A stretch of DNA of 64,000 nt from contig CAZOPR010000002.1 in assembly GCA_964581895.1 (NCBI GenBank), positions 254,185-318,184 of the forward strand, in the 5' to 3' direction. Origin of the DNA: an uncultured Brachyspira sp. (GTDB lineage Bacteria > Spirochaetota > JAAYUW01). This document shows, piece by piece, positions 28,688 through 60,860 of the stretch; the stretch's first letter is position 1; every line of letters starts with the position of its first letter. The notes beneath the pieces were generated by a model. It did not search any database. It was not told the DNA's origin and worked only from the letters and a program-made list of their open reading frames with translations. Position numbers and translations under genes: made by a program.

Positions 28688-29161
28688 TTGATACCTTCAA
28701 TATACAATATCATTCAGAAGTTTTCAGGAAAAGACCAGAAAAAAAGTGGGAAACTTGAAAGAACAGGTAGCTTAAAAAAAGAGGAGAAAAGTTTTGAACA
28801 GATTCTATTTGAAAAAAGGATAGAAGATATTGTTATTGAATATGAAAACCAGCCACCTGAAAATCTTACCTCCATGATAAATGAAGCTGGGAGAAGATAT
28901 AAAAATTCAAGAAACCAGCAAGATTTAATAAACTATAAAGAATTTCTTGCTTCTTTTATAGTATTGATAGAAAGGAAAGCCTATAAAATAAAGATAATAG
29001 ATAAAAAAAAGGATCTTCTTTCAGAAGATGAACTTGATTATATTATAATAGAGATAGAAAAAAGACTTGTTGCACTTATGGAAAGCTTTTTATCTTCACA
29101 AAGAGAGATTTTTTCATTGATAGACGAGATAGAAGGGTTAATTTTTAAGATAATGGTTTAA
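28688..29161 (+). CDS. Hypothetical protein between tmk and PSP1/RicT-like gene (TTG start)
   Basis: Position corresponds to where YaaR-like or holB genes sit in other bacteria; no motif confirmed. Confidence 0.3.
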   Translation: MIPSIYNIIQKFSGKDQKKSGKLERTGSLKKEEKSFEQILFEKRIEDIVIEYENQPPENLTSMINEAGRRYKNSRNQQDLINYKEFLASFIVLIERKAYKIKIIDKKKDLLSEDELDYIIIEIEKRLVALMESFLSSQREIFSLIDEIEGLIFKIMV

Positions 29162-29273
29162 GCTCGAAAAAGAACAAAAAAAAAGAACTAAAAGAAGAAA
29201 TAAAAAAAATTAAGTAAAGAAATAAAAAAAGATATAAAAAAAAGAAAAAAAAGAAATAAAAATAAGGAATTTT

Positions 29274-30305
29274 ATGTATCTTTATAGATGTAGATTATTA
29301 TATTCAAAAGCGATAATGGATTTCTATTCAAATAGTTTTTTTCAAATTTCACCACAATCTATCGTTAAAGTTGAGACAAAGCACGGGGTTGATCTTGCAA
29401 TATATTTAAATAAATTTGTAAATATTGATGATAAGGATTTTGATGAGATAATAAAATATCAGGCAACATCAGTTGAAGAAAATGTTGAAAGCATAGAAAA
29501 CACACAGGATTTTATCGATGAAGTTTCCGATGAACAGATAATTAACCAGCAGATTATTCAAAATTATACAAATTTAGCAAACAACGAAAAAGTAAGTAGA
29601 AAAAAACAGGTTAAAATAGAAGGGAAATTTTTATCTGCTGCAAGTCCTGATGACTTAAAAATATATAGAGAAAATGAGGTAAAGGCAGAAGAAGCGTTCA
29701 ATGTTTTTAAGCAGGAGATAAAAGAATGCAATCTTGAACACGAGATGAAACCTGTTGGAGTCCATTATTTTCTGGATGGTATGAAAATTCTATTTGATTT
29801 TGTTGCAGATCATAGGATTGACTTTAGAGAACTTGTTAAAAAACTTGCCGCAAGATATAGGAAAAGAATAGAACTTCATCAGATTGGAGTTAGAGATGAA
29901 GCGAGGATGATAGACGGGCTTTTTATTTGTGGGCAGCAGCTATGTTGCAGACGTTTTTTGCAACAACTAACACCAATTTCTATAAAGATGGCAGAGGTTC
30001 AAAATGCTCCTTTAAATACAATGAAAATTTCTGGTTATTGCGGAAGGCTGCTTTGCTGCCTTTCATATGAATCAGACCAATATGAAGAGGCAAAAGAGAA
30101 TCTTCCAGAACTTGGGTCAACAGTTATTTATAATAATGAAAAATATACTGTTTCTGAAGTTAATGTGATCAGGCAATATTTGAAAATAAAGAAAAAAGAA
30201 AGTATGGAATTTGTTTTGCTTAAAAATGAGCCTCTTACCTATGAAAAAGATAACGATGGAAATATAATAATTACAAAATATGAGCTTTATAATATGGCGA
30301 AATAA
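29274..30305 (+). CDS. PSP1 C-terminal domain protein (RicT/YaaT-like)
   Basis: Conserved Cys cluster ICGQQLCCRRF ... GYCGRLLCCLSYE; AAGGAA RBS. Confidence 0.6.
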   Translation: MYLYRCRLLYSKAIMDFYSNSFFQISPQSIVKVETKHGVDLAIYLNKFVNIDDKDFDEIIKYQATSVEENVESIENTQDFIDEVSDEQIINQQIIQNYTNLANNEKVSRKKQVKIEGKFLSAASPDDLKIYRENEVKAEEAFNVFKQEIKECNLEHEMKPVGVHYFLDGMKILFDFVADHRIDFRELVKKLAARYRKRIELHQIGVRDEARMIDGLFICGQQLCCRRFLQQLTPISIKMAEVQNAPLNTMKISGYCGRLLCCLSYESDQYEEAKENLPELGSTVIYNNEKYTVSEVNVIRQYLKIKKKESMEFVLLKNEPLTYEKDNDGNIIITKYELYNMAK

Positions 30306-30535
30306 AATAATATGGCGAAATAAAAAAAATAAAAAGATAAAATAAAGAAAATACAAAGAAGATAAAAAAAATTCAATAAAAGTTAAAAAGAAAAAATAAA
30401 AAGAAAAAGTAAAAGAGAATAAAAAGAGAATAAAAAGAAAAAATAAAAAGAGAATAAAAAGAGAAAATAAAGCGAAAATAAAAAAATATTATAAAGATAA
30501 AATAGAATTAATAACCTTAAATAATAAAATCTATC
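30306..30535 (+). repeat. A/G-only low-complexity spacer with internal gagaataaaaa-type repeats
   Basis: About 230 bp almost devoid of C/T on + strand. Confidence 0.7.
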
Positions 30536-31459
30536 TTAAAACTTATAACTTAAATTCATCCCCAAATATAATCTACTGATCTCTGAAATATCTGTGATAT
30601 TATCCGAATAAAAAGAATAGATTAAAACTCCAAATGCTGGTTCAAGTTTGAAATGGTCTAAAGTAAAGATAAGATTTGCTTTTGCATAAATATATTGATG
30701 AATATAAGTTAAAGAAGATACTGTTTTTAAGTCATTGTAAGAGTAACCTAATGCTAAAACAAAACCAAATGCAGTAATTGTTGGAACATATTTTATAATC
30801 AAAGCAAGGTCGTAGGTATTTAATTTGCTGTAATTTATAGATGTAGATGTTGTATCGAAGTTATAAAGAATTGAATCATATTTGAATGCAAGACCTATGG
30901 AAAGCTGATAGATATAAAATCCTATTTCAGTATTTATATCGTATTTTTCAAATGTATCAGATTTTGGAAGTTCAACTAAAGATGAAAAGATTGGCTGAAT
31001 ATATATAGGGTTGTTTATAGAGAGAAAAAAGAAAAGAAGCGGATAAAAATCCAGCAAAATAGAAGTGAAATTTTCAAAATAAGTAAATATATTATCAAAT
31101 GAATCTGAAACTTCAACCTTAAATCTTTCTTCAAAAGTTAAAAAATCTTTAATATATGAAAAACCTAATGAAAAGCTATTTGGTTGCTTAAAATTATAGG
31201 TGTTTCTTTCAAAGAAAAAGGATAAAGAAAGATTTTGGTTAAGATTTATTGAAAAAGATAAAATTGCATTATAGAAGGTATTATTTTTGATAGAAGTAAA
31301 GGAGTTTGAATACTGAAAAGGTAAAAAGCCATAGTCAAAACCAAGGGTAATCTGCTGGGCGAAGATAATATTTGGGAAAATTGTTAAGAAAAAAAGACAA
31401 GTTATTAAAATATTTAAAAGAAAAATTTTTTTATATCTTTTGGTAAATTTTATTTTCAT
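30536..31459 (-). CDS. Putative outer-membrane beta-barrel protein
   Basis: Signal peptide from ATG 31459 (AGGAG 8 nt upstream; track start 31483 adds 8 aa), Tyr/Phe-rich, C-terminal YKF. Confidence 0.4.
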   Translation of the reverse strand: MKIKFTKRYKKIFLLNILITCLFFLTIFPNIIFAQQITLGFDYGFLPFQYSNSFTSIKNNTFYNAILSFSINLNQNLSLSFFFERNTYNFKQPNSFSLGFSYIKDFLTFEERFKVEVSDSFDNIFTYFENFTSILLDFYPLLFFFLSINNPIYIQPIFSSLVELPKSDTFEKYDINTEIGFYIYQLSIGLAFKYDSILYNFDTTSTSINYSKLNTYDLALIIKYVPTITAFGFVLALGYSYNDLKTVSSLTYIHQYIYAKANLIFTLDHFKLEPAFGVLIYSFYSDNITDISEISRLYLGMNLSYKF

Positions 31460-31665
31460 ATAAAATACTCCTGCTTTATCCATTTTATTTCAATTAATAT
31501 ATAGCCTAAAAAAAATAAAATAGCAAAATAAAAAAAATTAAATTGTTAAATTATATAAAAAAAATTTAAAAAAATATGAAAAATCACTTGACAATGAGAA
31601 AAAAGATATTATTTGTATAGTAAGCACGTTATGTGCAGAAAACAAAAAAATCGGAGGAAATTTCT

Positions 31666-32706
31666 ATGAAGAAAATTTTACTAGTTATCGCTCTTATTCT
31701 TCTTATCGCTCTCCCTCTTTTTGCTCAGGAAGTTACAGTTGAAGATTTAAACAAAAGATTAACCAAACTCGAAATGTGGAAGTTTGGTGGTCTTTACATT
31801 AACTGGATGTATGTAAGTATACCAAATTCTGGTTTTCAGTGGGGATTTTTCTATGTCCCAACAGATGGTGATGGAATGCAACTTTCTTACATTCTTCCAA
31901 GATTTACAGCTCAATACAAAAATGGTAACTTTGTTGCTTTTTTCAGATTGAGCGCTGGTAAAGACGACGGCACTTTCCCTGCAGTTGCTTGGGATAGATG
32001 GTATGTTCAGTACAATCTTGGTTTTATGACATTACAAGTTGGTAAATTCACAGTTGGTGATACAATTCAACCTGAAATGTTCTACACATTCTGGTCTTCT
32101 GGTGCTAATATAAAAGATTGGGGTTCAAATGGAGATAATGGTTTTGGACTTCATATCCCAGTTGGTCCTGCTACAATCCATTTAGTTATTCCTTCAAATT
32201 TAAGCTGGGCTACTGGTGCTGAAGCTATCAATATTCATGCGTATGTTGACGGTTCTGTTGCTGATATGCTTAATTTCATAGTTGGTATGGATTATGATAT
32301 GAATGTTGCTACAGCAATATGGGCTGGTTTTTCAGTTACTCCAATGGAAATTTTAACAATTGGTGCTAACTTTGCTATGAATATGCCAGAAGGCGGCACT
32401 TCAGATTGGGAACTTTTATGGAATATTGCAGTTACTCCAACTGAAGATATCGCTATTTACAATGAAGGTGCTTATAGAGCAGGTTTAAGTTATTTACAAA
32501 CAGCTATTTGTGTATATTACACAAGCTTATATTTAAAAGCTGCTTTAGAAATGGATCTTACAACAAGCGATATGACAATTGGTGCTGAAGTTGGTTATGA
32601 TTTGACATTCGGAAGACTTTATTTCACACCAGCTTTCTATTTAACTCTCCCACCAACTGGCGATGCTGATTATGGTTTAAAACTTTTATTCTTGGCTATT
32701 TTCTAG
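31666..32706 (+). CDS. Porin-like outer-membrane protein, likely highly expressed
   Basis: ATG 31666 preceded by GGAGGA (track start 31633 is GTG); signal peptide ending FAQEV; C-terminal LAIF; biased codon usage; strong terminator downstream. Confidence 0.45.
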   Translation: MKKILLVIALILLIALPLFAQEVTVEDLNKRLTKLEMWKFGGLYINWMYVSIPNSGFQWGFFYVPTDGDGMQLSYILPRFTAQYKNGNFVAFFRLSAGKDDGTFPAVAWDRWYVQYNLGFMTLQVGKFTVGDTIQPEMFYTFWSSGANIKDWGSNGDNGFGLHIPVGPATIHLVIPSNLSWATGAEAINIHAYVDGSVADMLNFIVGMDYDMNVATAIWAGFSVTPMEILTIGANFAMNMPEGGTSDWELLWNIAVTPTEDIAIYNEGAYRAGLSYLQTAICVYYTSLYLKAALEMDLTTSDMTIGAEVGYDLTFGRLYFTPAFYLTLPPTGDADYGLKLLFLAIF

Positions 32707-32817: not shown

Positions 32818-33408
32818 ATGAAAAAATTTTATTTTATATTTTTTGTTTTTATATTCATAATTTTAATTTCGTGTAATACTACAAATAGTTTTGTAAAGAC
32901 AAGTTGGGTAGAAAGACTAAATCAAAAAGTTATAGTTGAAAATGATTATTGTTATGCTGAATGTAGCTTTGTAGATAAAGAGGCAATGACAAAAAATATT
33001 GCATCAGAGGGGATGAATCCTTTTATCTATAGGGACCCAATAATTACAAAACAGGAATCTATATTATTTTCTCTTCTTATTATACCAAAGGTAAATTTTG
33101 AAATATATGCCCAAGAGGTTTACATTAAAACTGAAGCAGCTAGTTATCCAATACTTTTTAGTGAATATATTCTTGATCAAAATATGTATGAAAGTGAAAT
33201 TGATTCTGTAACAAAAAAGATGAAAGACTTTGTTAATAAATACTTTCTTTCAAAAAAAGAGATATATAAAAATGGTGAAAGAAAAGTTAGATTTTTATAT
33301 TCTATTGTAAATCTAGATTATAAAGGTGCTATGGTTAGGATACCTATTCATATAAATCAGGATAAAATTTCTGTATTAAATTTTATTTTCCCAGAAATAA
33401 AAAGATAA
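32818..33408 (+). CDS. Hypothetical lipoprotein
   Basis: Signal peptide with lipobox-like LISC. Confidence 0.35.
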   Translation: MKKFYFIFFVFIFIILISCNTTNSFVKTSWVERLNQKVIVENDYCYAECSFVDKEAMTKNIASEGMNPFIYRDPIITKQESILFSLLIIPKVNFEIYAQEVYIKTEAASYPILFSEYILDQNMYESEIDSVTKKMKDFVNKYFLSKKEIYKNGERKVRFLYSIVNLDYKGAMVRIPIHINQDKISVLNFIFPEIKR

Positions 33409-33527
33409 AATAAAAAAATAAAGTATAAAAGATAAAGACAATAGATAAAAAAATATTAAAAAAAAGCAAATAAAAATAAAATAAAAGTAAAAAAAATATA
33501 ACTAAGATAAAATAAAAACAAAAAAAT

Positions 33528-33839
33528 ATGCAAAAGGATAAAATCTTAAAGCGAATTGTAACTGAATGTTTCTGGGACTATGATATTGATGAAAATTATT
33601 TATCCAATGCTATAAAAAATGGTGGCTTAACCGAAAAAAGAAAAATAGCTGAAAAAATAATACTAAATATGAGACAACCTGTAGATGGGCTACTTCTATT
33701 TTCAAAGGAAGATTTAGCTAAAATATTTGAATCTTTTAATGAAAAAATCAGGAAAAAAGAAAAAGTATTACTTTTGGAAAATTGTCTTTTAGGAAAAAAT
33801 AATAAAATAGAAAAATATGAATGGAAAAAGTTGGGATAA
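33528..33839 (+). CDS. Small hypothetical protein, candidate partner of AbiEii-like NTase
   Basis: 103 aa; overlaps next gene by 23 nt in a different frame. Confidence 0.3.
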   Translation: MQKDKILKRIVTECFWDYDIDENYLSNAIKNGGLTEKRKIAEKIILNMRQPVDGLLLFSKEDLAKIFESFNEKIRKKEKVLLLENCLLGKNNKIEKYEWKKLG

Positions 33840-34476
33840 GATTTATCAACTTCAAGATAGATTATTAGATATCATTTTTTCAATAGATAATAGTTTTTAT
33901 CTTACTGGTGGAACAGCTCTACATAGATTTTATTATAATTTAAGAGTTTCTTACGATCTTGATTTTTTCTCTTCTTCAACTGAGACTTTTTATGATGAAA
34001 TAGTAAATATTTTACAAAAACTTTTAGATGAAAAAATAGAATATAAAATTATTTCGAAAGTAAAAGATTTTAGTCGTATTTTAATTGAAGATGATCTTCA
34101 AATTGATTTTGTAAATGATAGAGTTTATAGATATGGGAAAAGTAATATAATAAATAGGTTTAGAATAGATAATATCGAAAACATATTATCAAATAAGGTT
34201 TGTGCAATAATAGATAGAGACGAAGAAAAGGATTTTTTCGATTTATTTGCTATTGCAAAAAATCATTCATTTAATTGGGAAAATATTTTTAATATATGCA
34301 ATAAGAAACAGATTGTTGAAAAAGAAGTTTTTGTAGAAAGGATAAAAAGTTTTCCCCTAATATGGCTTGAAAAAATAAGATTGATACAACCTTTTGAAAT
34401 CCATAAAAGTGATATTGAAAAACTGATTGAAGATTCTATTTATGGTAAAGATAATTCGCTAATTATGAAAAAATAA
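33817..34476 (+). CDS. AbiEii/DUF1814-like nucleotidyltransferase (toxin-like)
   Basis: N-terminal motif LTGGTALHRFYYNLRVSYDLDFF (GGTAL ... RxSxDxD). Confidence 0.5.
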   Translation: MNGKSWDKIYQLQDRLLDIIFSIDNSFYLTGGTALHRFYYNLRVSYDLDFFSSSTETFYDEIVNILQKLLDEKIEYKIISKVKDFSRILIEDDLQIDFVNDRVYRYGKSNIINRFRIDNIENILSNKVCAIIDRDEEKDFFDLFAIAKNHSFNWENIFNICNKKQIVEKEVFVERIKSFPLIWLEKIRLIQPFEIHKSDIEKLIEDSIYGKDNSLIMKK

Positions 34477-34479
34477 GAT

Positions 34480-34534
34480 AAATTCAATATAAATTCAATA
34501 TAAATTCATTTTTTCTTCATAATTTCTTCATAAT
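34480..34534. repeat. Two short tandem duplications upstream of efflux operon
   Basis: aaattcaatat x2 (+ partial) and ttcttcataat x2. Confidence 0.7.
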
Positions 34535-34619
34535 TTAAGTTATAGCTTGAATTGCAAAAATATTTTAATTTAATAATATCAAATTTGTTTATGAAAGAAG
34601 ATTCTTAAAAGAAGTTTTT

Positions 34620-35927
34620 ATGAAGAAAAAAATTATTTTTATTTTAACTATATTTTTAGTTTTCATATTTTACTCACAAAATTCATTGCAGGTTTACGAT
34701 TTTGAGCAAATAAAAAATATTTCAGTTGAAAATAATCTTACATTAAAAAATTATGAAAATCAGATGAATCTTGCAAAGCTTTCTTATGATCAAGCTGTTG
34801 CAAATCTTTATCTTCCATCTATTTCAGTAAGTAGCTCGACAAATATCCCTTTTGACCCGACAAAAAGTTTATCATCCTCAGTTAACTTAAATATTTCAAA
34901 ATCAATATTTAATGGTTTTGCTCTTAGGAAAGTAAAGGATTTAGCTTATCTTAATTATCAATATAAAAAAAGTCTTTATGAAAATCAGATACTTCAAACA
35001 AAGTATCTTGCCTTCAAGTATTATTATCAATATCTAAGCAAAATTTTACAGGAAAAATTGTACTTTGAAATTTTAAGGATTAATGAAAAAAGGCTTAAAG
35101 AATACAAGGTAAAATACGATTTAGGTCTTATTACTGAACTTGATTTTACATCACTTGCCCTTACTTTTTCAAAGGTTCAAGTTTCTTATGAAAATGCTAA
35201 AAATGATATGGAACTTTCCTACCTTCAGTTGAAAAATTTTGCAAATATAGAAGGTGATTTTGAAATAATAGAGCAAAAATCAATAGATAAAATTGATTTT
35301 TCTCTTTTATTTGAAAATGAAAAGTTAGATTTAAGTAACTTAAAAGCAGTCAACCTTTTAGGTTCTGCTAAAAAATATGATGCAAACTACTTAAATTCAC
35401 TTTACCAATATTATCAATCAGAAGTAAACCTTAAATATTATTTGGCATCACTTTTCCCATCACTTTCATCAGCCTTTGGGATATCTTATTCTGGCTTGAT
35501 TAAGGATAATAGTTTAAATTTTAACGACCCTTCACTTTCTTTTTCACTTTCAATCTCTTTGGATTTAGACTCACTTTTTGGCTTTTCATCTAAAGGGATC
35601 GAGAAAAAAGTCTTAAAACAGGAGTATGAAAATGCAAAACTAAACCTTTTGAAAGCCGAAAATGATCTTCTTTTATCTCTTGAAACATCTTTTTCAAACC
35701 TGATTTTAAGCCAGAAAAACAAGGAAAATGCGGAAAATACATATAATTATGCATCAAAAGGTTATAATCTTGCTATTGATGCCTTTAACCTTGGTCAAAT
35801 TTCAGCATCAAGCTTCGCCTCCTGGGAAGAGGAGTATGTAAATGCGAAGATAACTTTGTACTCTGCAATTCTTTCATATGTGTTAAATGTCAAATCAATC
35901 GAACTTATGACTGGAAACTTTGAATAA
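34620..35927 (+). CDS. TolC-like outer membrane efflux protein
   Basis: Signal peptide; two-repeat coiled-coil/beta architecture; first gene of adaptor/ABC cluster. Confidence 0.6.
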   Translation: MKKKIIFILTIFLVFIFYSQNSLQVYDFEQIKNISVENNLTLKNYENQMNLAKLSYDQAVANLYLPSISVSSSTNIPFDPTKSLSSSVNLNISKSIFNGFALRKVKDLAYLNYQYKKSLYENQILQTKYLAFKYYYQYLSKILQEKLYFEILRINEKRLKEYKVKYDLGLITELDFTSLALTFSKVQVSYENAKNDMELSYLQLKNFANIEGDFEIIEQKSIDKIDFSLLFENEKLDLSNLKAVNLLGSAKKYDANYLNSLYQYYQSEVNLKYYLASLFPSLSSAFGISYSGLIKDNSLNFNDPSLSFSLSISLDLDSLFGFSSKGIEKKVLKQEYENAKLNLLKAENDLLLSLETSFSNLILSQKNKENAENTYNYASKGYNLAIDAFNLGQISASSFASWEEEYVNAKITLYSAILSYVLNVKSIELMTGNFE

Positions 35928-35952
35928 AACTTAAAATTTCTAAGAGGTAAAG

Positions 35953-37266
35953 ATGAAGAAAAAAATAAATAAAATACTTTTCATTCTCCTTTTAATAATT
36001 ATCATTGCTGCTATTAGTTTTTACTTTATTTATAAAAATAAGGTCGCAGCAAAAAAAAATATTGTTTTCACCACTGCTATAATCCAAAGTGGTAGCATCA
36101 CAAGTTCTGTAAGTGCATCTGGAAAGATAGAGCCAATCGATTCCTATCCTGTAATGGCTTCAATATCTGGTAAAATAGATAAGGTTCTTGTTGATTATAA
36201 TTCAAAAGTCAAAAAAGGGCAGATTTTAGCCATAATAAAACAGGATGATTATTTGTTTGCCTTGAAGCAGGCTCAGCTTAGTTACGATGAAGCAACTATA
36301 ACTTTATCAAATAAAGAGATGGATTATAATAATAATCTTGAACTTTATAAAAAAGGTTTTTTGACTTCTGCTGCACTAAAAGAATCTGAAAATAGTTATA
36401 AACTTGCACAGATAGCAGTTGAATCGGCTAAGGTTTCGCTTGAAAAGGCTAAAACAAATCTTGAAAATACATTATTAAAATCTCCAATAGATGGCTTCAT
36501 ACTTGAAAAAAATGTTGACGAAGGGGATTTTATAAGCACAAATATTTCTCAATCTGAACTTTTTGTAGTCTGTTCAGATCTTTCAAGACTGAAAATAACG
36601 GCAAATGTTGATGAATCAGATATTAGTCTTATAAAGGAAGGCCAAAAAGTCCAATTTACAGTTTTGGCTTATGATACAATGAGTTTTACAGGAGAAGTAA
36701 AACAGATAAGATTAAATTCAAATGAAAGCTCAAATGTTGTGACTTACACAGTTATAATAGAGACAAAAAATATAGATAATAAGCTACTTCCAGGGATGAC
36801 AGCTTCTATAGAATTTGTAAATCAACCAAGCGAGGGAGCATTTTTGGTTCCTCAAACATCAATATCACTAAAAGGTTTGGCGTTGCTTAAGAATATTGGA
36901 CCTTATACTGTTAATATCCCAAAAAATCAAGGGGTTAATCCTTCACAAAATCAAAATCCTTCACAAAATCAAAATCTTTTTAAAACACAAAATCCTTCTC
37001 AAAATCAAAATCCTACTCAAAATTTTAACAAAAGTTCTGATTCAAACCAACTTCAAAACAAGAATATAAAGATACTATGGGTTATAGATGAGACAAAAAA
37101 GATTGTATATCCAATTCCAGTAAAAACAGGAAATACAGATGGGAAAATGATTGAGGTCTTTTCTCCACTTTTGAAAGAAGGGATGAAAATAATTTCAAGC
37201 CTTATGACTAAAAATAAAACCAATAACCAGAACAATAATTTTGGCATGCCTCCAATTCGATTTTAG
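35953..37266 (+). CDS. Periplasmic adaptor (membrane fusion, HlyD/MacA-like) with C-terminal N/P/S/Q repeat
   Basis: N-terminal TM, coiled-coil hairpin, beta-barrel region; NPSQNQ tandem repeats near C-terminus. Confidence 0.7.
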   Translation: MKKKINKILFILLLIIIIAAISFYFIYKNKVAAKKNIVFTTAIIQSGSITSSVSASGKIEPIDSYPVMASISGKIDKVLVDYNSKVKKGQILAIIKQDDYLFALKQAQLSYDEATITLSNKEMDYNNNLELYKKGFLTSAALKESENSYKLAQIAVESAKVSLEKAKTNLENTLLKSPIDGFILEKNVDEGDFISTNISQSELFVVCSDLSRLKITANVDESDISLIKEGQKVQFTVLAYDTMSFTGEVKQIRLNSNESSNVVTYTVIIETKNIDNKLLPGMTASIEFVNQPSEGAFLVPQTSISLKGLALLKNIGPYTVNIPKNQGVNPSQNQNPSQNQNLFKTQNPSQNQNPTQNFNKSSDSNQLQNKNIKILWVIDETKKIVYPIPVKTGNTDGKMIEVFSPLLKEGMKIISSLMTKNKTNNQNNNFGMPPIRF

Positions 37267-37420
37267 GATTTTGGTTAATGTGATTTAATACTGAATTTAA
37301 TTTTTGATTTTGTAATTAATAAAGTTGTTATTTTTTTTGTTATTTGATTAAAATTAAATTTAATAAATTCTGTAATTTTTGCTTTAGGTAAAATTTTAGT
37401 ATAAAAATATAGGAAAATTG

Positions 37421-38143
37421 ATGGAAAATTCAAATAGTACTTTAATAGAAGTTATTGATTTAACAAAGATTTATGGTGTTGGTGATTCAAAAGTCATCGC
37501 ACTTGATGGAATAAACTTAAAAATATTTACTGGAGATTTTATCGCAATAATTGGTGCATCTGGTTCTGGTAAAAGCACATTTATGAATATTTTGGGAACA
37601 CTTGATATACCAACCTCAGGTAAATATCTATTTGAAAACATTAATGTTGAAAAGATGGATGATGATGAAAGAAGCTATATTAGATCGAAACATATAGGTT
37701 TTGTTTTTCAAAGTTTTAATCTTGTAAAGACATTAAATGCTGTCGAAAATGTTGAACTTCCTTTATTTTATATGAAAGATGAAAAGAAGGGAAATTTCAA
37801 TAAAAAAAGAGCTTTGATAAGAGAAAAAGCCATATCTATATTAAAAGATGTTGGACTTAGCAATAGGATTTATCATAGGACTAACCAGCTTTCAGGAGGT
37901 CAACAGCAGAGAATAGCGATAGCAAGGGCTCTTATAAATGACCCAGACCTTATTTTGGCTGATGAACCAACTGGAAATCTTGATTCAAAAACAAGTCTTG
38001 AGATTATGGAAATTTTTATCAATCTGCATAAAAATGGGAAAACTATTGTTCTTGTAACTCATGAACATGATATAGCCGCTTTTGCTAAAAAAATTGTTGA
38101 ATTTAAAGATGGGAAAATTATCGATATAAGAGAAAATATATGA
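37421..38143 (+). CDS. ABC transporter ATP-binding protein (MacB/LolD-like)
   Basis: Walker A GASGSGKST, signature LSGGQQQRIAIARAL, Walker B ILADEPTGNLD; ATG 37421 (track start 37418 is TTG). Confidence 0.85.
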   Translation: MENSNSTLIEVIDLTKIYGVGDSKVIALDGINLKIFTGDFIAIIGASGSGKSTFMNILGTLDIPTSGKYLFENINVEKMDDDERSYIRSKHIGFVFQSFNLVKTLNAVENVELPLFYMKDEKKGNFNKKRALIREKAISILKDVGLSNRIYHRTNQLSGGQQQRIAIARALINDPDLILADEPTGNLDSKTSLEIMEIFINLHKNGKTIVLVTHEHDIAAFAKKIVEFKDGKIIDIRENI

Positions 38144-39357
38144 GATTAGAAATTTTATTAAATTTTTCAGTTCGAAGTCTTTTACATAGCAAGCTTAGAA
38201 CATTTTTAACTATGCTTGGTATAATTATCGGTCTTGCTGCAATTGTAGTAATGGTAGCGATAGGACAAGGTGTTTCAAAACAGGTGCATGATCAGATCGC
38301 ATCTTTTGGGAACAACCTTTTAACTGTAATGCCAGCGCCACCTTCAAGTTCTGGAGCAAGGCAATCCACAAGCTCGGGTGTAAGATTAACGGAAGAGGAT
38401 TATTTAGCTATTAAACAAAGATCAAATTATTTAAAAGCTGTTTCTCCCTTAGTTCAAACAAGAGCTCAGGTTATAACATCTGGAGGGAACTGGAATACCA
38501 TGGTATATGGTGGAAGTACGGATTATCTTTCAATAAGAGACTGGCCTATTGAAAGTGGCAGAAATTTCACAAATGCCGAGGAAAAAGCAAAAGCAAAAGT
38601 TTGCATTATAGGAAAAACAATAGCAGAAGAGCTATTTGATGGAACAGATCCAGTAGGTTCTGAAATAAGAGTTGCAAGATTAAACCTGAAAATAATTGGG
38701 GTATTAAAGGAGAAAGGGACAAATTCTTTTGGGATGGATCAGGATGATTTAATAATAGTTCCTTATACAACATTACTCTATAGGTTAAGTAGGTTTAGAT
38801 ACATTCAACAGATACTTTGCTCTGCGATAAGTGAAGATCAGATAGATATTGCACAACAGGAAATTGAGCAGATAATGAGAGCCTCACATAGATTGGAGGA
38901 AGGAGAGGAAAATAATTTTAGAATATCAAATCAAGCCGATGTTCTTGAAGCATCTATGAATACCACAAGAACTTTGACGCTATTTTTAGCTATAGTTGCT
39001 GGGATTTCCCTTCTAGTAGGAGGCATCGGCATTATGAACATAATGCTTGTAAGTGTTGTTGAAAGGACAAAGGAGATAGGACTGCGAAGGGCAATAGGAG
39101 CAAAAAAAGTTGATATCCAGCAGCAATTTTTGATAGAAGCTCTTATCTTATGTTTGCTTGGAGGTATCATCGGAATATTCTTGGGTGTAGTAATTGTATT
39201 TTTATTGAAATTTGTTTCTACATTATCATTAGTGATTTCAGTAAATTCTATAATAATAGGTTTTGTTGTTTCTTTTGCAGTAGGTGTTTTTTTTGGGTAT
39301 TATCCTGCAAAAAAGGCTTCGGATATGAACCCTATAGATGCATTAAGATATGAATAA
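38140..39357 (+). CDS. ABC transporter permease (FtsX/MacB-type)
   Basis: N-terminal TM, large periplasmic domain, C-terminal 3 TM helices; ATGA overlap with ATPase gene. Confidence 0.8.
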   Translation: MRLEILLNFSVRSLLHSKLRTFLTMLGIIIGLAAIVVMVAIGQGVSKQVHDQIASFGNNLLTVMPAPPSSSGARQSTSSGVRLTEEDYLAIKQRSNYLKAVSPLVQTRAQVITSGGNWNTMVYGGSTDYLSIRDWPIESGRNFTNAEEKAKAKVCIIGKTIAEELFDGTDPVGSEIRVARLNLKIIGVLKEKGTNSFGMDQDDLIIVPYTTLLYRLSRFRYIQQILCSAISEDQIDIAQQEIEQIMRASHRLEEGEENNFRISNQADVLEASMNTTRTLTLFLAIVAGISLLVGGIGIMNIMLVSVVERTKEIGLRRAIGAKKVDIQQQFLIEALILCLLGGIIGIFLGVVIVFLLKFVSTLSLVISVNSIIIGFVVSFAVGVFFGYYPAKKASDMNPIDALRYE

Positions 39358-45286: not shown

Positions 45287-45359
45287 TCGGAAAGAGGAGA
45301 TTTGAACTCCTGACCCCATGGTCCCGAACCATGTGCGCTACCATCTGCGCTACTTTCCG
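45287..45359 (-). tRNA. tRNA-Pro (anticodon CGG)
   Basis: 73-nt cloverleaf: acceptor CGGAAAG/CTTTCCG, D-arm GCGC-AGATGGTA-GCGC, anticodon arm CATGG-TTCGGGA-CCATG, T-arm AGGAG-TTCAAAT-CTCCT; CCA not encoded. Confidence 0.85.
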
Positions 45360-49423: not shown

Positions 49424-50236
49424 TTATTCTCCTTTTACATCATACTCTACTATTCTTAAATATGTCAGAAAATAGAAGAAGAAAGAAAGAAGGAATTTTA
49501 TAATTTCGCCAAGTAAAGTGTAATTTATCTCTTTTAATCCTAATCTTGATAGAGTATCTGAAAGATTGAGTGAAAATTGCATTGACATATTATTAAAGAA
49601 TAGCAAAAATACTGATGTATATATCAAAAAAAAGGCGAAGAATATTGCAAGTATAGTTAATATTGTGAGTAGAAAACTATTTTTTTTGAAATATGTCGAA
49701 CCAAGCATAAAGATAGAAGTGATAAAAAAGTATGAAGAAATTATTTTATAGTTAAAAAGAGATAATATCGCATCTAATGGATAAGTTCTTCGCAAAAAAG
49801 CAAAAATAAAAATATTATTAACTAAGAAAGCGATGATAGTAAATAATATACTTAAAAGAAGATAAAAGAAAAAATAGTAAAGCCAGATACTCAAAAATTT
49901 TTCAAAGATTGTTACTGGAACCATAAAAAATTGTGTTGCTTTTTCTTCCTGATGAAGATGCTTAAAACTATTTGAAGCCATAATGCAACCAATAAATAAA
50001 GAAATTATTAGATAAAAATTAAGGTTGATAGAATTAGTTATCATTATAGAACTGGCAATAAAAATCTTTTTAATAAAAATAGTAAATAAAATACCAAAGA
50101 TAAAAATTAAGTTTACAACTAAAGGCGCTATAAAAATTTGTTTACCATATAAATTAAAATCAAGTTTCAATAAAGATAGAAAATTCTTAGTTTTCGAATT
50201 TTCGTAAATTCTAAGTTTTTTATCTATTTCTGTCAT
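49424..50236 (-). CDS. Multi-pass membrane protein, probable ABC-2 type permease
   Basis: Six predicted hydrophobic segments; sits between ABC ATPase and GntR regulator. Confidence 0.4.
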   Translation of the reverse strand: MTEIDKKLRIYENSKTKNFLSLLKLDFNLYGKQIFIAPLVVNLIFIFGILFTIFIKKIFIASSIMITNSINLNFYLIISLFIGCIMASNSFKHLHQEEKATQFFMVPVTIFEKFLSIWLYYFFFYLLLSILFTIIAFLVNNIFIFAFLRRTYPLDAILSLFNYKIISSYFFITSIFMLGSTYFKKNSFLLTILTILAIFFAFFLIYTSVFLLFFNNMSMQFSLNLSDTLSRLGLKEINYTLLGEIIKFLLSFFFYFLTYLRIVEYDVKGE

Positions 50237-50253
50237 TTTTTACTCCTATTGTA

Positions 50254-50460
50254 ATGTTATTTTTTCCTTTTTTCGTTTTTATTTTTTATTTTTATATTTT
50301 TATATTTTTTACTTTTCTTTATATTTTTTACTTTATTTTTATTTATTTCTTTTCTATTCTTTTTTTACTTTTTGCTTTTTTATTTTCTTTTTTTAATTTT
50401 TTTTATTTTTTGCTTTTATATTTTTTGTTTATTTTGTTTTTATTATTTCAGTTTGACTGA
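50254..50460 (-). repeat. Polypurine (A/G-only on minus strand) spacer between ABC ATPase and permease genes
   Basis: About 200 bp of T/C-only sequence on + strand. Confidence 0.7.
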
Positions 50461-51275
50461 TTAAAAATAGTCGGATTTGATATAGCAGCATTGAAGAAAA
50501 ATTCTAAATCTACTACCTCATTATTATTTTTTCTATTAAGAAGGTAGATTTTGCCAGTTGCTGACTGCTCAAAATATATAATATTTTCCTGATCATTTTG
50601 TTGATTTGATTCAGTAGCAATAGAATAATTTTGAGTAATATAGTCTAAAGAGTTATTAAAAATGATCTTGCCTTCGTGAAGTATTATAATTTTATCAAAA
50701 AGCTGAGACAGATCTCTTACCTGGTGTGTAGATATTATAAAAATTTGATTTTCAGTTAAACTTTCAGCTATTTTTTTTCTTACAGAAGTCTTTGAAGGGA
50801 TATCAAGACCATTTGTTGGTTCATCTAAAAGCATTATTTTAGCAAATGTTGAAAGGCCAAATGCAAGGTAAAACTTTTTCTTCTGACCAAATGAAAGAGA
50901 GATCAGGTTTTTATCAAGAGGGATTTCAAATTCTTTGCAGGTTTTGAAAAAGTATTCTTCATCAAAATTTGGGTAAAATTCACTGTAAAGTTTATAAAAT
51001 TTTTCACCATTGAAAGATGGCAAGTAAAAATTTTCAGGGAAAAAGAAGATATCTTTCAGCATTTCTGGATCTCTTTTTATAGATTTTTTACCCATAACTT
51101 CGATTTCGCCATTATTTAAATGAAGTAGTCCTGTTATACATTTTAATAATGTCGTTTTCCCTGCACCGTTTTTACCTAAGAGTCCATAGATATGTCCTTG
51201 CTCAAAATTTGCATAAAGATTATTGAAAAGCAGGTTTTTTGAATAACCAAAGACAAGATTTTTACATTCAATCAT
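50448..51275 (-). CDS. ABC transporter ATP-binding protein
   Basis: Walker A GKNGAGKTT, signature LSFGQKKK, Walker B MLLDEPTNGLD; AAGGAG 5 nt upstream of ATG 51275. Confidence 0.85.
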   Translation of the reverse strand: MIECKNLVFGYSKNLLFNNLYANFEQGHIYGLLGKNGAGKTTLLKCITGLLHLNNGEIEVMGKKSIKRDPEMLKDIFFFPENFYLPSFNGEKFYKLYSEFYPNFDEEYFFKTCKEFEIPLDKNLISLSFGQKKKFYLAFGLSTFAKIMLLDEPTNGLDIPSKTSVRKKIAESLTENQIFIISTHQVRDLSQLFDKIIILHEGKIIFNNSLDYITQNYSIATESNQQNDQENIIYFEQSATGKIYLLNRKNNNEVVDLEFFFNAAISNPTIFNQSN

Positions 51276-57955: not shown

Positions 57956-60860
57956 AATTAATAAAAGATTCTATAAGCATTTGTAAAAGTTTTCTATAAG
58001 TATAAGGCTTACCTATTATAGTTTTATTTTTTGAAATAATAGCGTTATCTTCATCAAAGATGATGTGAGGAATTGCTTCGAATTTATCACTTGACTTTTG
58101 AAAGTTATTTTTATCTATAATCAAAAATGAGATTTCCTTTTCAAAATCTAATGATTTCGGGAAATTAAAATCTAAAAGATTTAAACTCAATCTTTTATTT
58201 TTGTCAAAGTCAAATATATTAAATTTAATTTTAATATAATTAAGGAAGGAAACTATTTTTTCTTTTAATAATTTATCCTCTAAATAAATCGAGATATTCA
58301 TTTTTTCCTTATCTTTAAGATTATTAAGTTTCATAAATTTATCAAGGTATTTTAATATTTCCTTATCTATCTGGCTTGGCAAATTATCTTTGTTTAATAA
58401 AGAACTATTTTTATATGGGATTTCAAAATTGAAAATTGTCCCAAAACCTTTACTACTTTTAACTGTTATTCTTCCTTCAAGAAGTTCCACAAGGTTTTTT
58501 GCTATAGAAAGTCCAAGACCAGTTCCTCCATATTTTTGGTAAATCTCTTTATTTGCTTGCTTAAAAGGTTTAAAAATATTAGGGATATCATTTTCAGAAA
58601 TCCCAATTCCACTATCTTCAACTTGAAATATCAATTGTTTTTCATTTTTATCATTTGAATAATACTTAGAAATAAATAGTTTTATAAAACCTTTTGAAGT
58701 AAATTTCAAAGAATTACTTATTAGATTCATAGTAATTTGCTTTATCTTTATCTCATCAGAAACAAAAATATCTTCCACATTAGAATCTACAATCGAAGAA
58801 AAATTTAATCCTTTTTCTTTAGCTAATAGATAATAATATTCTTCGATTTCATCTGCAAAATTTCTTATTGAAAAAGGTTTTAATATTAATTCTATGCTAT
58901 TTGATTCAATTCTATAAAAATCAAGGATGTGATTTACTAACTCCAGGGTCTGTTCTGAGTTTTTCTTAAGAGTTAATGCGATTGACTCCAAAGGTTTGTC
59001 TTTTAATTTTTCAGTCAATAATGAAGATATCCCAGTAGAAGCAGTTAACATATTTTTTAGCTCATGACCTAAAAATGCAAGAAAGTTTGATTTATCTTCA
59101 TTTGCTTCGGTTGCTGATTTTTCGGCTTTTTCAATTTCTTTTATATTTTTCAAAAGTTGATTTTCAAGATTCTTTTGACTTGAAATATCTAAAACTATAA
59201 CTATTAATTTATTTTCAAACTTTTTACCATAGAAAGATAAAACTTTGCTTTCACCGCTTTTATATTTCAATTGGATTATATTTTTAGCAAAATTATTTTT
59301 CTTAAGCCTTAGATAAAATCTTTTCATTTTTCTTTGAGAATTTTTATCAAAATAGGATAGGAATAAATCTCTTGTCATTTTTTTATTAATTGGGATATCG
59401 ATCAAGTTTTTAATATATTTTGAAAAAGTAACTTGACCGCTAAAAAGATCTTCTGTCCAGAAAGATAGATCTATTGTTTGTTGGATTAATTCAAGATTAT
59501 TTGAATATTCCTTTATCTTTGATTCCTCATTGATTTTATCAATCAAATCATATAAAAAGTAAGAAAAGATGGAAAGTGTTTTCTTCTGGTTTTTAGATAA
59601 ACCAAAGTATTTTACATAATCCAGAACATCTTGATTGAAATAATCAAATATATCTTCCTTTTCATTTATTAAAAGAAGAACTGCCTTAGTCTCTTTCTTA
59701 TGGATTACAGGGAAAATTATTATTTCATAATTGGAATCAATAGAAGAAATATCATTAAAAAATATATCTATTATTTTTTCATCTTTTTTATTTATTGTTA
59801 AATATTTTTCTTTGATAAATTTTTCTTTTATTTCGTAATCTATATCTTTTAATTTTATTTTATCTTTGAAGATCTTATTTCTTTTTATAGTTGAATAATA
59901 TGAAATTAAGATAATTTTATTTTTGTTTTCAAAATCCTTGAAATAAAAGGCTATTGAAATCAGATTTAGGTTTTCACAGATTGATTTTAATGAACTTTTT
60001 AAGGTTTTTTCAATGGAAAATGTCTCTAAAAGATTGTACATCGATTCTTCAATAGATTTTGAAAGATAGAGGTTGGATTTTTGTTCTAAAATTTTTAGAT
60101 GATTGGAAGTTATATCTTTTGAAATTCCAATTATACCAATAGTTTTACCGGAATCAGATAGAATCGGACTTTTTATTGTATTAAAGCATAATATATCATC
60201 TTTAAAATTATTTTTTGGATTTTTAAATTTTTTCCAATGTACCTCTGATATTGTTAGATTCTGAGCAAGAACATATTGATCACTTTTAATGTAATCTTTT
60301 GCCTCCTTTGGTTCAAATATGTCAAAATCTGTTTTATTGACTATATCTTCTTTTGAAATACCGAATAGATTTTCAAAATGCTTATTTATTATTATGTACT
60401 TTTTATTTTGATCTTTTATAAAAATAGGGTCAGTTATTAAGTTCAATAATGAGTAAAAATAATTGGTATGAATATCAAAAATATCTATCAGTTCATTGAT
60501 TTCCCCATAACTTCTTAAAAAAACCAGGATATAATCAATATTATTTTCTTTATCATTAATATAATGCATTTCTATTTGAAATTCCTTAGTATAATTTGAT
60601 TTTGAATATAACAATTTGGTTTTTACTTTGCTTGTATAATATTTTACTTCTTTAAGAGTTTTAATCGCTTTTTTGATCTCTTCTTCTTTTTCAAAGATAT
60701 TAAAAAAGTATTCTAGATTATTTAAATTTTTTGCAAAAGTATTTTTTGCAGTACTATTCATTAAAAATATCTGCCCTTCTAATGAAAGAATAATTATACC
60801 ATATGGAGCTTTATTAAAAAAGGGGGTATTAGAAATCTTAAAATAAAGATTTTTATCCAT
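57954..60860 (-). CDS. Multi-domain sensor histidine kinase (PAS-like regions, HisKA, HATPase_c, C-terminal receiver-like tail)
   Basis: H-box LAFLGHELKNMLTA, G-box GGTGLGLSIAKNL; no obvious TM segments. Confidence 0.8.
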   Translation of the reverse strand: MDKNLYFKISNTPFFNKAPYGIIILSLEGQIFLMNSTAKNTFAKNLNNLEYFFNIFEKEEEIKKAIKTLKEVKYYTSKVKTKLLYSKSNYTKEFQIEMHYINDKENNIDYILVFLRSYGEINELIDIFDIHTNYFYSLLNLITDPIFIKDQNKKYIIINKHFENLFGISKEDIVNKTDFDIFEPKEAKDYIKSDQYVLAQNLTISEVHWKKFKNPKNNFKDDILCFNTIKSPILSDSGKTIGIIGISKDITSNHLKILEQKSNLYLSKSIEESMYNLLETFSIEKTLKSSLKSICENLNLISIAFYFKDFENKNKIILISYYSTIKRNKIFKDKIKLKDIDYEIKEKFIKEKYLTINKKDEKIIDIFFNDISSIDSNYEIIIFPVIHKKETKAVLLLINEKEDIFDYFNQDVLDYVKYFGLSKNQKKTLSIFSYFLYDLIDKINEESKIKEYSNNLELIQQTIDLSFWTEDLFSGQVTFSKYIKNLIDIPINKKMTRDLFLSYFDKNSQRKMKRFYLRLKKNNFAKNIIQLKYKSGESKVLSFYGKKFENKLIVIVLDISSQKNLENQLLKNIKEIEKAEKSATEANEDKSNFLAFLGHELKNMLTASTGISSLLTEKLKDKPLESIALTLKKNSEQTLELVNHILDFYRIESNSIELILKPFSIRNFADEIEEYYYLLAKEKGLNFSSIVDSNVEDIFVSDEIKIKQITMNLISNSLKFTSKGFIKLFISKYYSNDKNEKQLIFQVEDSGIGISENDIPNIFKPFKQANKEIYQKYGGTGLGLSIAKNLVELLEGRITVKSSKGFGTIFNFEIPYKNSSLLNKDNLPSQIDKEILKYLDKFMKLNNLKDKEKMNISIYLEDKLLKEKIVSFLNYIKIKFNIFDFDKNKRLSLNLLDFNFPKSLDFEKEISFLIIDKNNFQKSSDKFEAIPHIIFDEDNAIISKNKTIIGKPYTYRKLLQMLIESFIN

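Follow-up and report, generated by a model that had tools for sequence, protein, structure and literature searches.

A short DUF1814/AbiEii-type nucleotidyltransferase and its helical WDY-motif partner form a widespread putative toxin–antitoxin cassette in a spirochaete genome

A two-gene locus in a spirochaete contig

We analyzed a stretch of 64,000 nucleotides (nt) of DNA from an uncultured Brachyspira sp. of the Spirochaetota (contig CAZOPR010000002.1; the whole stretch is referred to as the window), in which a gene for a 219-amino-acid (aa) protein of the DUF1814/AbiEii nucleotidyltransferase class follows directly behind a small gene for a 103-aa protein. We call the larger protein the toxin, after its superfamily, and the smaller one the partner. 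Positions given here are those of the window unless a locus (L and a number) is named. An earlier note, made from the letters of the DNA alone, had described the two open reading frames (ORFs) and an overlap of 23 nt between them, and all three were recovered at the coordinates in Table 1. The toxin is read in the +1 frame relative to the partner, and because its start codon sits inside the end of the partner gene, translation of the two genes would be coupled. Homologues of both proteins span many phyla, and both proteins fold in structure prediction with a predicted local distance difference test (pLDDT) score of ~94; both ORFs are therefore real and did not arise by chance.

Table 1. Features of the two-gene locus and its flanks, in window positions.
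Feature	Position	Strand	Basis
Intergenic spacer ahead of the partner gene; A-rich (74% A, 17% T) and not cassette-specific	33409..33527	.	Composition
Partner gene, 103 aa, putative antitoxin; small, basic, all-helical, uncatalogued family; N-terminal C-x-W-D-Y motif	33528..33839	+	
F15-W16-D17-Y18-D19 codons; motif common to both partner subfamilies, in the loop between helices 1 and 2	33570..33584	+	
Overlap, 23 nt, of the partner gene end and the toxin start codon	33817..33839	+	ORF coordinates
Toxin gene, 219 aa, short DUF1814/AbiEii/MenT-class nucleotidyltransferase	33817..34476	+	Pfam, PADLOC, AF2, Foldseek, PDB profile search
Motif I (G31-G32-T-A-L) through motif II (R43-V-S45-Y-D47-L-D49) codons	33907..33963	+	27-sequence alignment A4
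D97-F-V-N-D101 codons, conserved acidic motif, probable nucleotidyltransferase motif III	34105..34119	+	A4
N126-K127...R134-D135-E136-x-K138-D139-x-F141-D142 codons, DUF1814-specific motif IV region	34192..34242	+	A4, JHP933 alignment
Intergenic spacer behind the toxin gene; contains two 11-nt tandem repeats and a promoter-like element	34477..34619	.	Repeat search, synteny

The exact length of the overlap varies among relatives. In most of them, the toxin ATG is embedded in the Glu-Trp codons of the partner (GA-ATG-G), which gives an overlap of 16 nt. The element GAATGGAAAA (33819–33828) is kept in the window, but its ATG (33821) is out of frame, and toxins of the Exilispira clade, a spirochaete name that the close homologues carry, start 4 nt earlier (MNGK... 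vs. MEK...), resulting in the 23-nt overlap. Since the toxin start codon overlaps the Glu-Trp codons, the invariance of partner residue W99 may partly reflect the overlap itself.

Toxin family, motifs, and fold

The earlier note had assigned the 219-aa protein to the AbiEii/DUF1814 nucleotidyltransferases, and profile searches support this assignment. The protein matches Pfam PF08843 (AbiEii) over residues 23–164 with 51.2 bits (E = 2.1e-13), above the gathering threshold of 22.5 bits, and it is also matched by 19 PADLOC AbiEii models. The signature string on which the assignment had been based, LTGGTALHRFYYNLRVSYDLDFF, is present, with GGTAL at residues 31–35 and RVSYDLD at residues 43–49. 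Hundreds of relatives of ~220 aa, from many phyla, were found at 50% identity or higher.

Both pol-beta-type motifs are present in the toxin, motif I as hGG[ST] and motif II as R-x-S-x-D-x-D. In an alignment of 27 sequences (A4), residues G31, G32, T33, R43, S45, D49, D97, F98, and D101 are invariant, as are N126, K127, R134, D135, E136, K138, D139, F141, and D142, and D47 is conserved in at least 90% of sequences. The toxin in the window holds every family-invariant catalytic position, including S45. Residues 97–101 read DFVND and residues 126–142 read NKVCAIIDRDEEKDFFD, and the region of motif IV, as defined for DUF1814 (PMC3985639), aligns with the NKLCA...R..ARDLFD stretch of JHP933 from H. 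pylori. The spacing of R43-x-S45-x-D47-x-D49 is that of R76, S78, K79, D80, and D82 in MenT3 (PMC11375011, PMC7450476; TglT S78A and D82A entries), where the mapping of S45 onto MenT3 S78 comes from motif spacing and register and not from structural superposition. From these sequence comparisons, S45 is the predicted phospho-acceptor, with D47 and D49 as the aspartates that would bind metal.

The AlphaFold2 (AF2) model of the toxin has a pLDDT of 93.7 and a predicted template modelling (TM) score of 0.89. In Foldseek searches, the model matched JHP933 (4o8s, E = 2.4e-10; 4ok0, TM 0.68), MenT4 (6y56, E = 3e-6), and TglT/MenT3 (6j7n, E = 3e-4). JHP933 is also the sole solved structure that is reached by sequence, with E = 1e-4 from the single sequence and 4e-10 in a profile search of the PDB. 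Because of its profile matches, intact motifs, and fold matches, the 219-aa protein is a short, ordinary member of the DUF1814/AbiEii/MenT superfamily.

An uncatalogued family of small helical partners

The 103-aa partner has no match in Pfam, NCBIfam, PADLOC, or PHROGs. Its structure model (pLDDT 94) is a compact, all-helical domain of seven helices, including helices at residues 3–14 and 22–31, with no significant fold counterpart in the PDB and no helix-turn-helix (HTH) fold, and the family profile has no match among PDB sequences. This agrees with the impression, recorded in the earlier note, of a small upstream partner that lacks an obvious HTH, unlike AbiEi. Partner homologues occur as free-standing proteins of ~100–125 aa. 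Residues C14, W16, and D17 are conserved in at least 90% of sequences in the family alignment (A3), and the Trp and Asp are invariant or nearly so in a divergent subfamily (A5), which is also without a match in Pfam or NCBIfam. The two subfamilies are homologous, as alignment of A3 with A5 by hhalign gives a probability of 96.6% (E = 5e-10) and is anchored on the WD[YV] motif. No element other than the WDY loop, which connects helices 1 and 2, is conserved in both subfamilies, and this loop would therefore be the best candidate for the part of the partner that contacts the toxin.

The median isoelectric point (pI) of the partners is ~9.1 (net charge +3.5) and that of the toxins is ~5.4 (net charge −6), the basic character of the partner not being universal in the family. 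No description of the family as a partner of DUF1814 toxins was found in the profile libraries or in the literature searched, and the partner is probably a new kind of antitoxin for toxins of this class.

Several other matches were considered. The Pfam family DUF6922 gave sub-threshold, non-significant matches to 3 of 48 members of the partner family (A2; best E = 0.029) and to none of seven divergent members, and it is not mentioned in the literature searched; at most, these matches may point to a very distant relationship. Matches to two representative sequences (P0129 and P0180) were rejected as repeat-protein artefacts. A word-indexed protein search returned seven partner matches, of the Exilispira type, and understated the family; an exhaustive profile search and a locus-based approach were used instead.

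Linkage of the two genes across phyla

The toxin alignment was used to scan one genome per species across 185,579 species, which yielded at least 493 relatives, and the best 80 loci were retrieved. With the first partner hidden Markov model (HMM), a match was found in the ORF directly upstream of the toxin in 64 of 86 loci, and nearly all of the remaining loci had an upstream ORF of ~95–115 aa with the same N-terminal WD[YV] motif. With HMMs for both subfamilies, a partner ORF was identified immediately upstream and on the same strand in 79 of 81 loci (the window and 80 species genomes). The other two loci are cut at a contig end, so the linkage holds in all 79 loci in which it could be assessed. 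Partner and toxin overlap by 13–71 nt in 77 of these and abut in two (single overlap lengths are approximate, toxin start codons having been assigned automatically), and the two genes are fused in none.

The linked loci span at least 12 phyla. Among other taxa, cassettes were identified in Spirochaetota, Fermentibacterota-type metagenome-assembled genomes (MAGs), Campylobacterota, Desulfobacterota and Syntrophales, Calditrichota, Delongbacteria, and many Bacteroidota, as well as in Ignavibacteria, Kapabacteria, Chlorobiota, Cloacimonadota, Neomarinimicrobiota, lineages of the Candidate Phyla Radiation (Collierbacteria, Shapirobacteria), the Planctomycetes–Verrucomicrobia–Chlamydiae (PVC) group, and FCPU426 MAGs. 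Evolutionary distances of partner and toxin are correlated across loci (Pearson 0.84, Mantel p = 0.001). Of the two, the partner evolves more rapidly (p-distance 0.73 vs. 0.58 for the toxin), as is usual for antitoxins.

While the two genes stay together, their surroundings change, and only 84 of 3240 locus pairs (2.6%) share any flanking homologue. For example, in Candidatus Sabulitectum MAGs (L001/L002, 1–2207), the cassette sits beside Cas1-Cas2 and HicB-PIN genes in a defence and toxin–antitoxin (TA) island, a context that is absent from the window. On the conjugative MOBP/MPF_T Campylobacter coli plasmid NZ_OX442414.1 (L090, 2179–3400), it lies between the TrbM and toprim genes. The plasmid partner (110 aa, annotated as a hypothetical protein; HMM E = 4.5e-11) overlaps a toxin of 308 aa that has a Lys/Asn-rich C-terminal extension of ~90 residues, an extension that the toxin in the window lacks. 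Strict linkage of two genes, variable context, and presence on mobile elements are the generic marks of a TA cassette. Because of the strict linkage, the co-divergence, the rarely shared flanks, and the varied contexts that include a conjugative plasmid, the pair has, as judged from genome comparison, the character of an autonomous TA-type cassette. A phage origin of the cassette was rejected, since no relatives were found in viral contigs, phage genomes, or PHROGs.

Proposed mechanism and its alternatives

The partner families known for DUF1814 toxins are COG5340, COG4861, and MenA1 (PMC3985639, PMC7450476). MenT1 and MenT3 add pyrimidines to the 3′ acceptor ends of tRNA and thereby block translation (PMC7450476, PMC10435456), and MenA1, MenA3, and AbiEi, which belong to three unrelated families, bind their toxins and induce auto-phosphorylation of a Ser or Thr in the active site (PMC11375011, bioRxiv 10.64898/2026.01.19.700257). 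By analogy with these systems, we consider it probable (roughly 0.6) that the pair in the window is a mobile bicistronic cassette of the TA or abortive infection (Abi) type, in which the partner would act as the cognate antitoxin of a MenT-like tRNA-modifying toxin, possibly through auto-phosphorylation of Ser45. By homology, the toxin would stop translation by attaching nucleotides to the 3′ acceptor ends of tRNA, and the upstream, translationally coupled gene would encode its cognate antitoxin. The partner would most likely bind the toxin directly and may push the active-site loop, such that Ser45 of R-x-S-x-D-x-D becomes auto-phosphorylated and the enzyme is switched off, following Type VII logic; as a fallback, the partner may simply occlude the active site. 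Toxicity, the tRNA target, physical binding, and phosphorylation are all predicted from characterised relatives.

Several observations weigh against this interpretation. The toxin is only ~21% identical to JHP933 and 10–15% identical to MenT3 and MenT4, and JHP933 is itself without functional characterisation. A conserved serine in the motif is on its own no sign of phospho-regulation, because it would be expected for catalysis anyway. Likewise, co-divergence is expected of any two tightly linked genes. The charge polarity of the pair is opposite to that of textbook type II systems and would fit a nucleic-acid-binding partner equally well. In addition, the locus in the window does not lie within a defence island, and the missing viral relatives are also a point on this side, being neutral with regard to abortive infection.

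Neutralization may also be purely steric, as in type II systems, where partner and toxin would form a stable complex in which the active site, or the surface that binds tRNA, is blocked and the toxin is not covalently modified. We regard this as unlikely, even though MenA1 inhibits MenT1 in a stable heterotrimer (PMC10435456, PMC11375011), partner and toxin carry opposite net charges that would help them to form a tight electrostatic complex, and the gene order and overlap follow the type II operon pattern. The acceptor serine is invariant in the toxin family, which speaks for phosphorylation, and the steric and phosphorylation mechanisms are not mutually exclusive.

It is still less probable, in our view, that the partner is not an antitoxin at all. 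In that case, it would be a nucleic-acid-binding subunit that brings substrate RNA to the nucleotidyltransferase, or a transcriptional autoregulator whose DNA-binding fold is not an HTH, and the two genes would encode a two-subunit enzyme or a regulator–enzyme pair (type IV-like or non-TA). A basic partner beside an acidic toxin would suit such a role, AbiEi and COG4861 partners are DNA-binding autoregulators (PMC3985639), and in the Exilispira lineage the cassette has a stable place at a single chromosomal site, beside housekeeping-type genes.

In HEPN-MNT systems, the MNT antitoxin inactivates the HEPN toxin by nucleotidylation. A reversal of roles along these lines, with the small protein as the toxin and the nucleotidyltransferase as an antitoxin that acts by nucleotidylation, has a precedent in these HEPN-MNT pairs, in which the toxin is small and helical and the antitoxin is a nucleotidyltransferase (discussed in PMC3632139), but it is very improbable here. 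The partner does not contain a single histidine and so cannot carry the HEPN Rx4-6H motif, for which reason a HEPN identity was rejected; there is no HEPN domain among its fold matches; and in every characterised DUF1814 system, the DUF1814 protein is the toxic component and its gene follows that of the antitoxin, as is the case here. Finally, that the two ORFs are one gene split by a frameshift (a sequencing error or a pseudogene), as the earlier note had allowed for, or that the small ORF is spurious, can practically be dismissed by comparison in place of the resequencing proposed there. The overlap does lie in an A-rich, homopolymer-prone stretch. Yet the ORFs are separate, with overlaps of 0–71 nt, in all 79 assessable loci, the two-ORF arrangement recurs in independent assemblies with toxins of 99% and 73% identity, the partner homologues are free-standing, both proteins fold independently, and full-length homologues of the toxin begin at the position where it begins in the alignment.

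Comparison with known DUF1814 systems

The reading of the pair as a TA cassette with a cognate antitoxin can be set against four kinds of known DUF1814 systems. By sequence and by fold, the closest solved relative of the toxin is JHP933 (PDB 4O8S/4OK0) of the H. pylori pair JHP932-JHP933. JHP933 is likewise a short DUF1814 protein behind an overlapping, unannotated small ORF, described as a "classic TA configuration" (Cai et al., PMC7450476; L088). In the literature searched, only this likely TA configuration is reported for JHP932-JHP933, with no functional test. The partners differ, since the JHP932-type proteins (156–165 aa, with GDWH...HPRA motifs) are unrelated to the partner family of the window. 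Homology of the partner to JHP932 was rejected, as both partner HMMs score negative against the H. pylori (L088) and Alcanivorax (L089) proteins. The H. pylori protein has 156 aa (L088, 2061–2531) and no Pfam match, and the Alcanivorax protein has 165 aa (L089, 2007–2504). From these comparisons, JHP932-type partners form another uncatalogued partner family.

The best functional analogy is MenA1-MenT1 (Rv0078B-Rv0078A) of Mycobacterium tuberculosis, a Type VII system in which a short DUF1814 toxin follows a small upstream antitoxin that has no DNA-binding domain. The phospho-acceptor in the active-site loop is T39 in MenT1, where S45 is predicted for the toxin in the window. MenA1 has 68 aa, is described as related to MazE, and is predicted to be disordered (PMC7450476), contacting its toxin by way of a single extended helix (PMC11375011), whereas the partner in the window is a compact seven-helix domain of 103 aa. 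Searches of the PDB, which includes solved complexes of MenA1 (8AN5), gave no sequence or fold match for the partner. Homologues of MenA1 are few (21, PMC10435456), while the partner family described here is widespread.

AbiEi-AbiEii and MenA3/MenA4-MenT3/MenT4 (COG5340-DUF1814) have the toxin superfamily, the motifs, and the antitoxin-first bicistronic operon in common with the pair. Nucleotidylation of tRNA 3′ ends as the predicted toxic activity and induced auto-phosphorylation as its predicted control are likewise shared. However, an AbiEi antitoxin is a COG5340 protein (~200 aa) that combines an N-terminal winged HTH with a C-terminal domain, whereas the partner is hit by no AbiEi model of Pfam or PADLOC and lacks an HTH fold. 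With 219 aa, the toxin also falls short of the 290–292 residues in the MenT3/TglT and MenT4 chains. Classification schemes that require both AbiEi and AbiEii would probably not call the pair AbiE. In COG4861-COG4849 systems (the MenA2-MenT2 type), the DUF1814 toxin likewise lies downstream of a partner outside COG5340; there, the partner is a predicted transcriptional regulator and exceeds its toxin in size, whereas the partner in the window is half the size of its toxin and has no regulator signature.

Implications for DUF1814 toxins

DUF1814 (AbiEii/MenT) toxins are among the most abundant effectors in defence and TA systems, and the current model is that unrelated antitoxins force these toxins to phosphorylate themselves. 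The toxin superfamily is already known, and the novelty of the cassette lies in its partner family. We would put at even odds the broader proposal that the WDY-motif helical protein represents an undescribed antitoxin family and fold, carried in a widespread cassette, and a further independent means of controlling DUF1814 toxins after COG5340, COG4861, MenA1, and the JHP932 type. Detection schemes that demand a known AbiEi-type partner would probably overlook such a cassette. A broad and structurally unrelated partner family offers an independent test of the induced-auto-phosphorylation model, as well as a new small fold to solve. On one hand, if the partner does trigger auto-phosphorylation of Ser45, structurally unrelated proteins would have converged repeatedly on the same trick. 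On the other hand, if it does not, a basic partner beside an acidic toxin may reveal a different control logic, such as competition for tRNA or its delivery.

There is also a consequence for annotation. Many genomes, mostly of uncultured anaerobes and also Campylobacter plasmids, carry complete cassettes in which the toxin may look like an orphan AbiEii. The partner was labelled as a hypothetical protein wherever a name was seen, and a profile of the partner family would close this gap.

Local context of the cassette

In the window (G+C content 26.9%), the cassette lies between two genes for secreted-looking proteins on one side and an efflux operon of OEP (TolC-like), HlyD, and MacB genes (34620–39357) on the other. 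The two upstream ORFs (31633–32706, 357 aa; 32818–33408, 196 aa) begin with hydrophobic segments that resemble signal peptides and are not matched by Pfam, and the ORFs at the same positions in syntenic relatives have 381–383 aa and 173–225 aa. Assemblies with toxins of 99% and 73% identity carry the cassette at the same chromosomal site, and on this synteny evidence the cassette is stably resident in the Exilispira lineage. Another Exilispira copy, with a toxin of 61% identity, is found at a different site.

The sequences that flank the pair were examined as well, as the earlier note had described an A/G-only spacer on one side and tandem repeats on the other. The upstream spacer is rather an A-rich A/T tract, with counts of 88 A, 20 T, 7 G, and 4 C, and it is not kept in the syntenic loci L093 and L094 of the relative whose toxin shares 73% identity. 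In several long intergenic stretches of the window, one base, either A (on the + strand) or T, makes up 65% or more of the sequence, with A-rich tracts at 29140–29294, 30287–30541, 31505–31609, and 33375–33567, and T-rich tracts at 50198–50483 and 59762–59870. Such tracts look like a genome-wide habit of an AT-rich organism and not like a feature of this locus.

The tandem repeats are real, but they are not specific to the pair. There are 2.8 copies of ATAAATTCAAT at 34478–34508 and 2.3 copies of TTTCTTCATAA at 34512–34536, all with 100% matches, and the repeat unit is absent from the rest of the window. The second repeat and a promoter-like element, TTGCAA-16 nt-TAATAT, are conserved together (34509–34580) in the syntenic Exilispira loci L091, L093, and L094, with toxin identities of 99% and 73%. 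The promoter reading was made by inspection and lies below the threshold of the promoter scan, which found no match within the A-rich spacer and only chance-level matches across the region. Neither an intrinsic terminator in the region nor meaningful inverted or direct repeats bracketing the pair were found. A role of the spacer or the repeats as an operator, an att site, or an insertion scar was rejected, given that bracketing repeats are absent, the tract type recurs, and the repeats precede the efflux operon. Rather, 34509–34580 is probably the regulatory region of the OEP-HlyD-MacB efflux operon and not of the cassette. Elsewhere in the window, a tRNA gene on the minus strand (45287–45359) is the only Rfam match.

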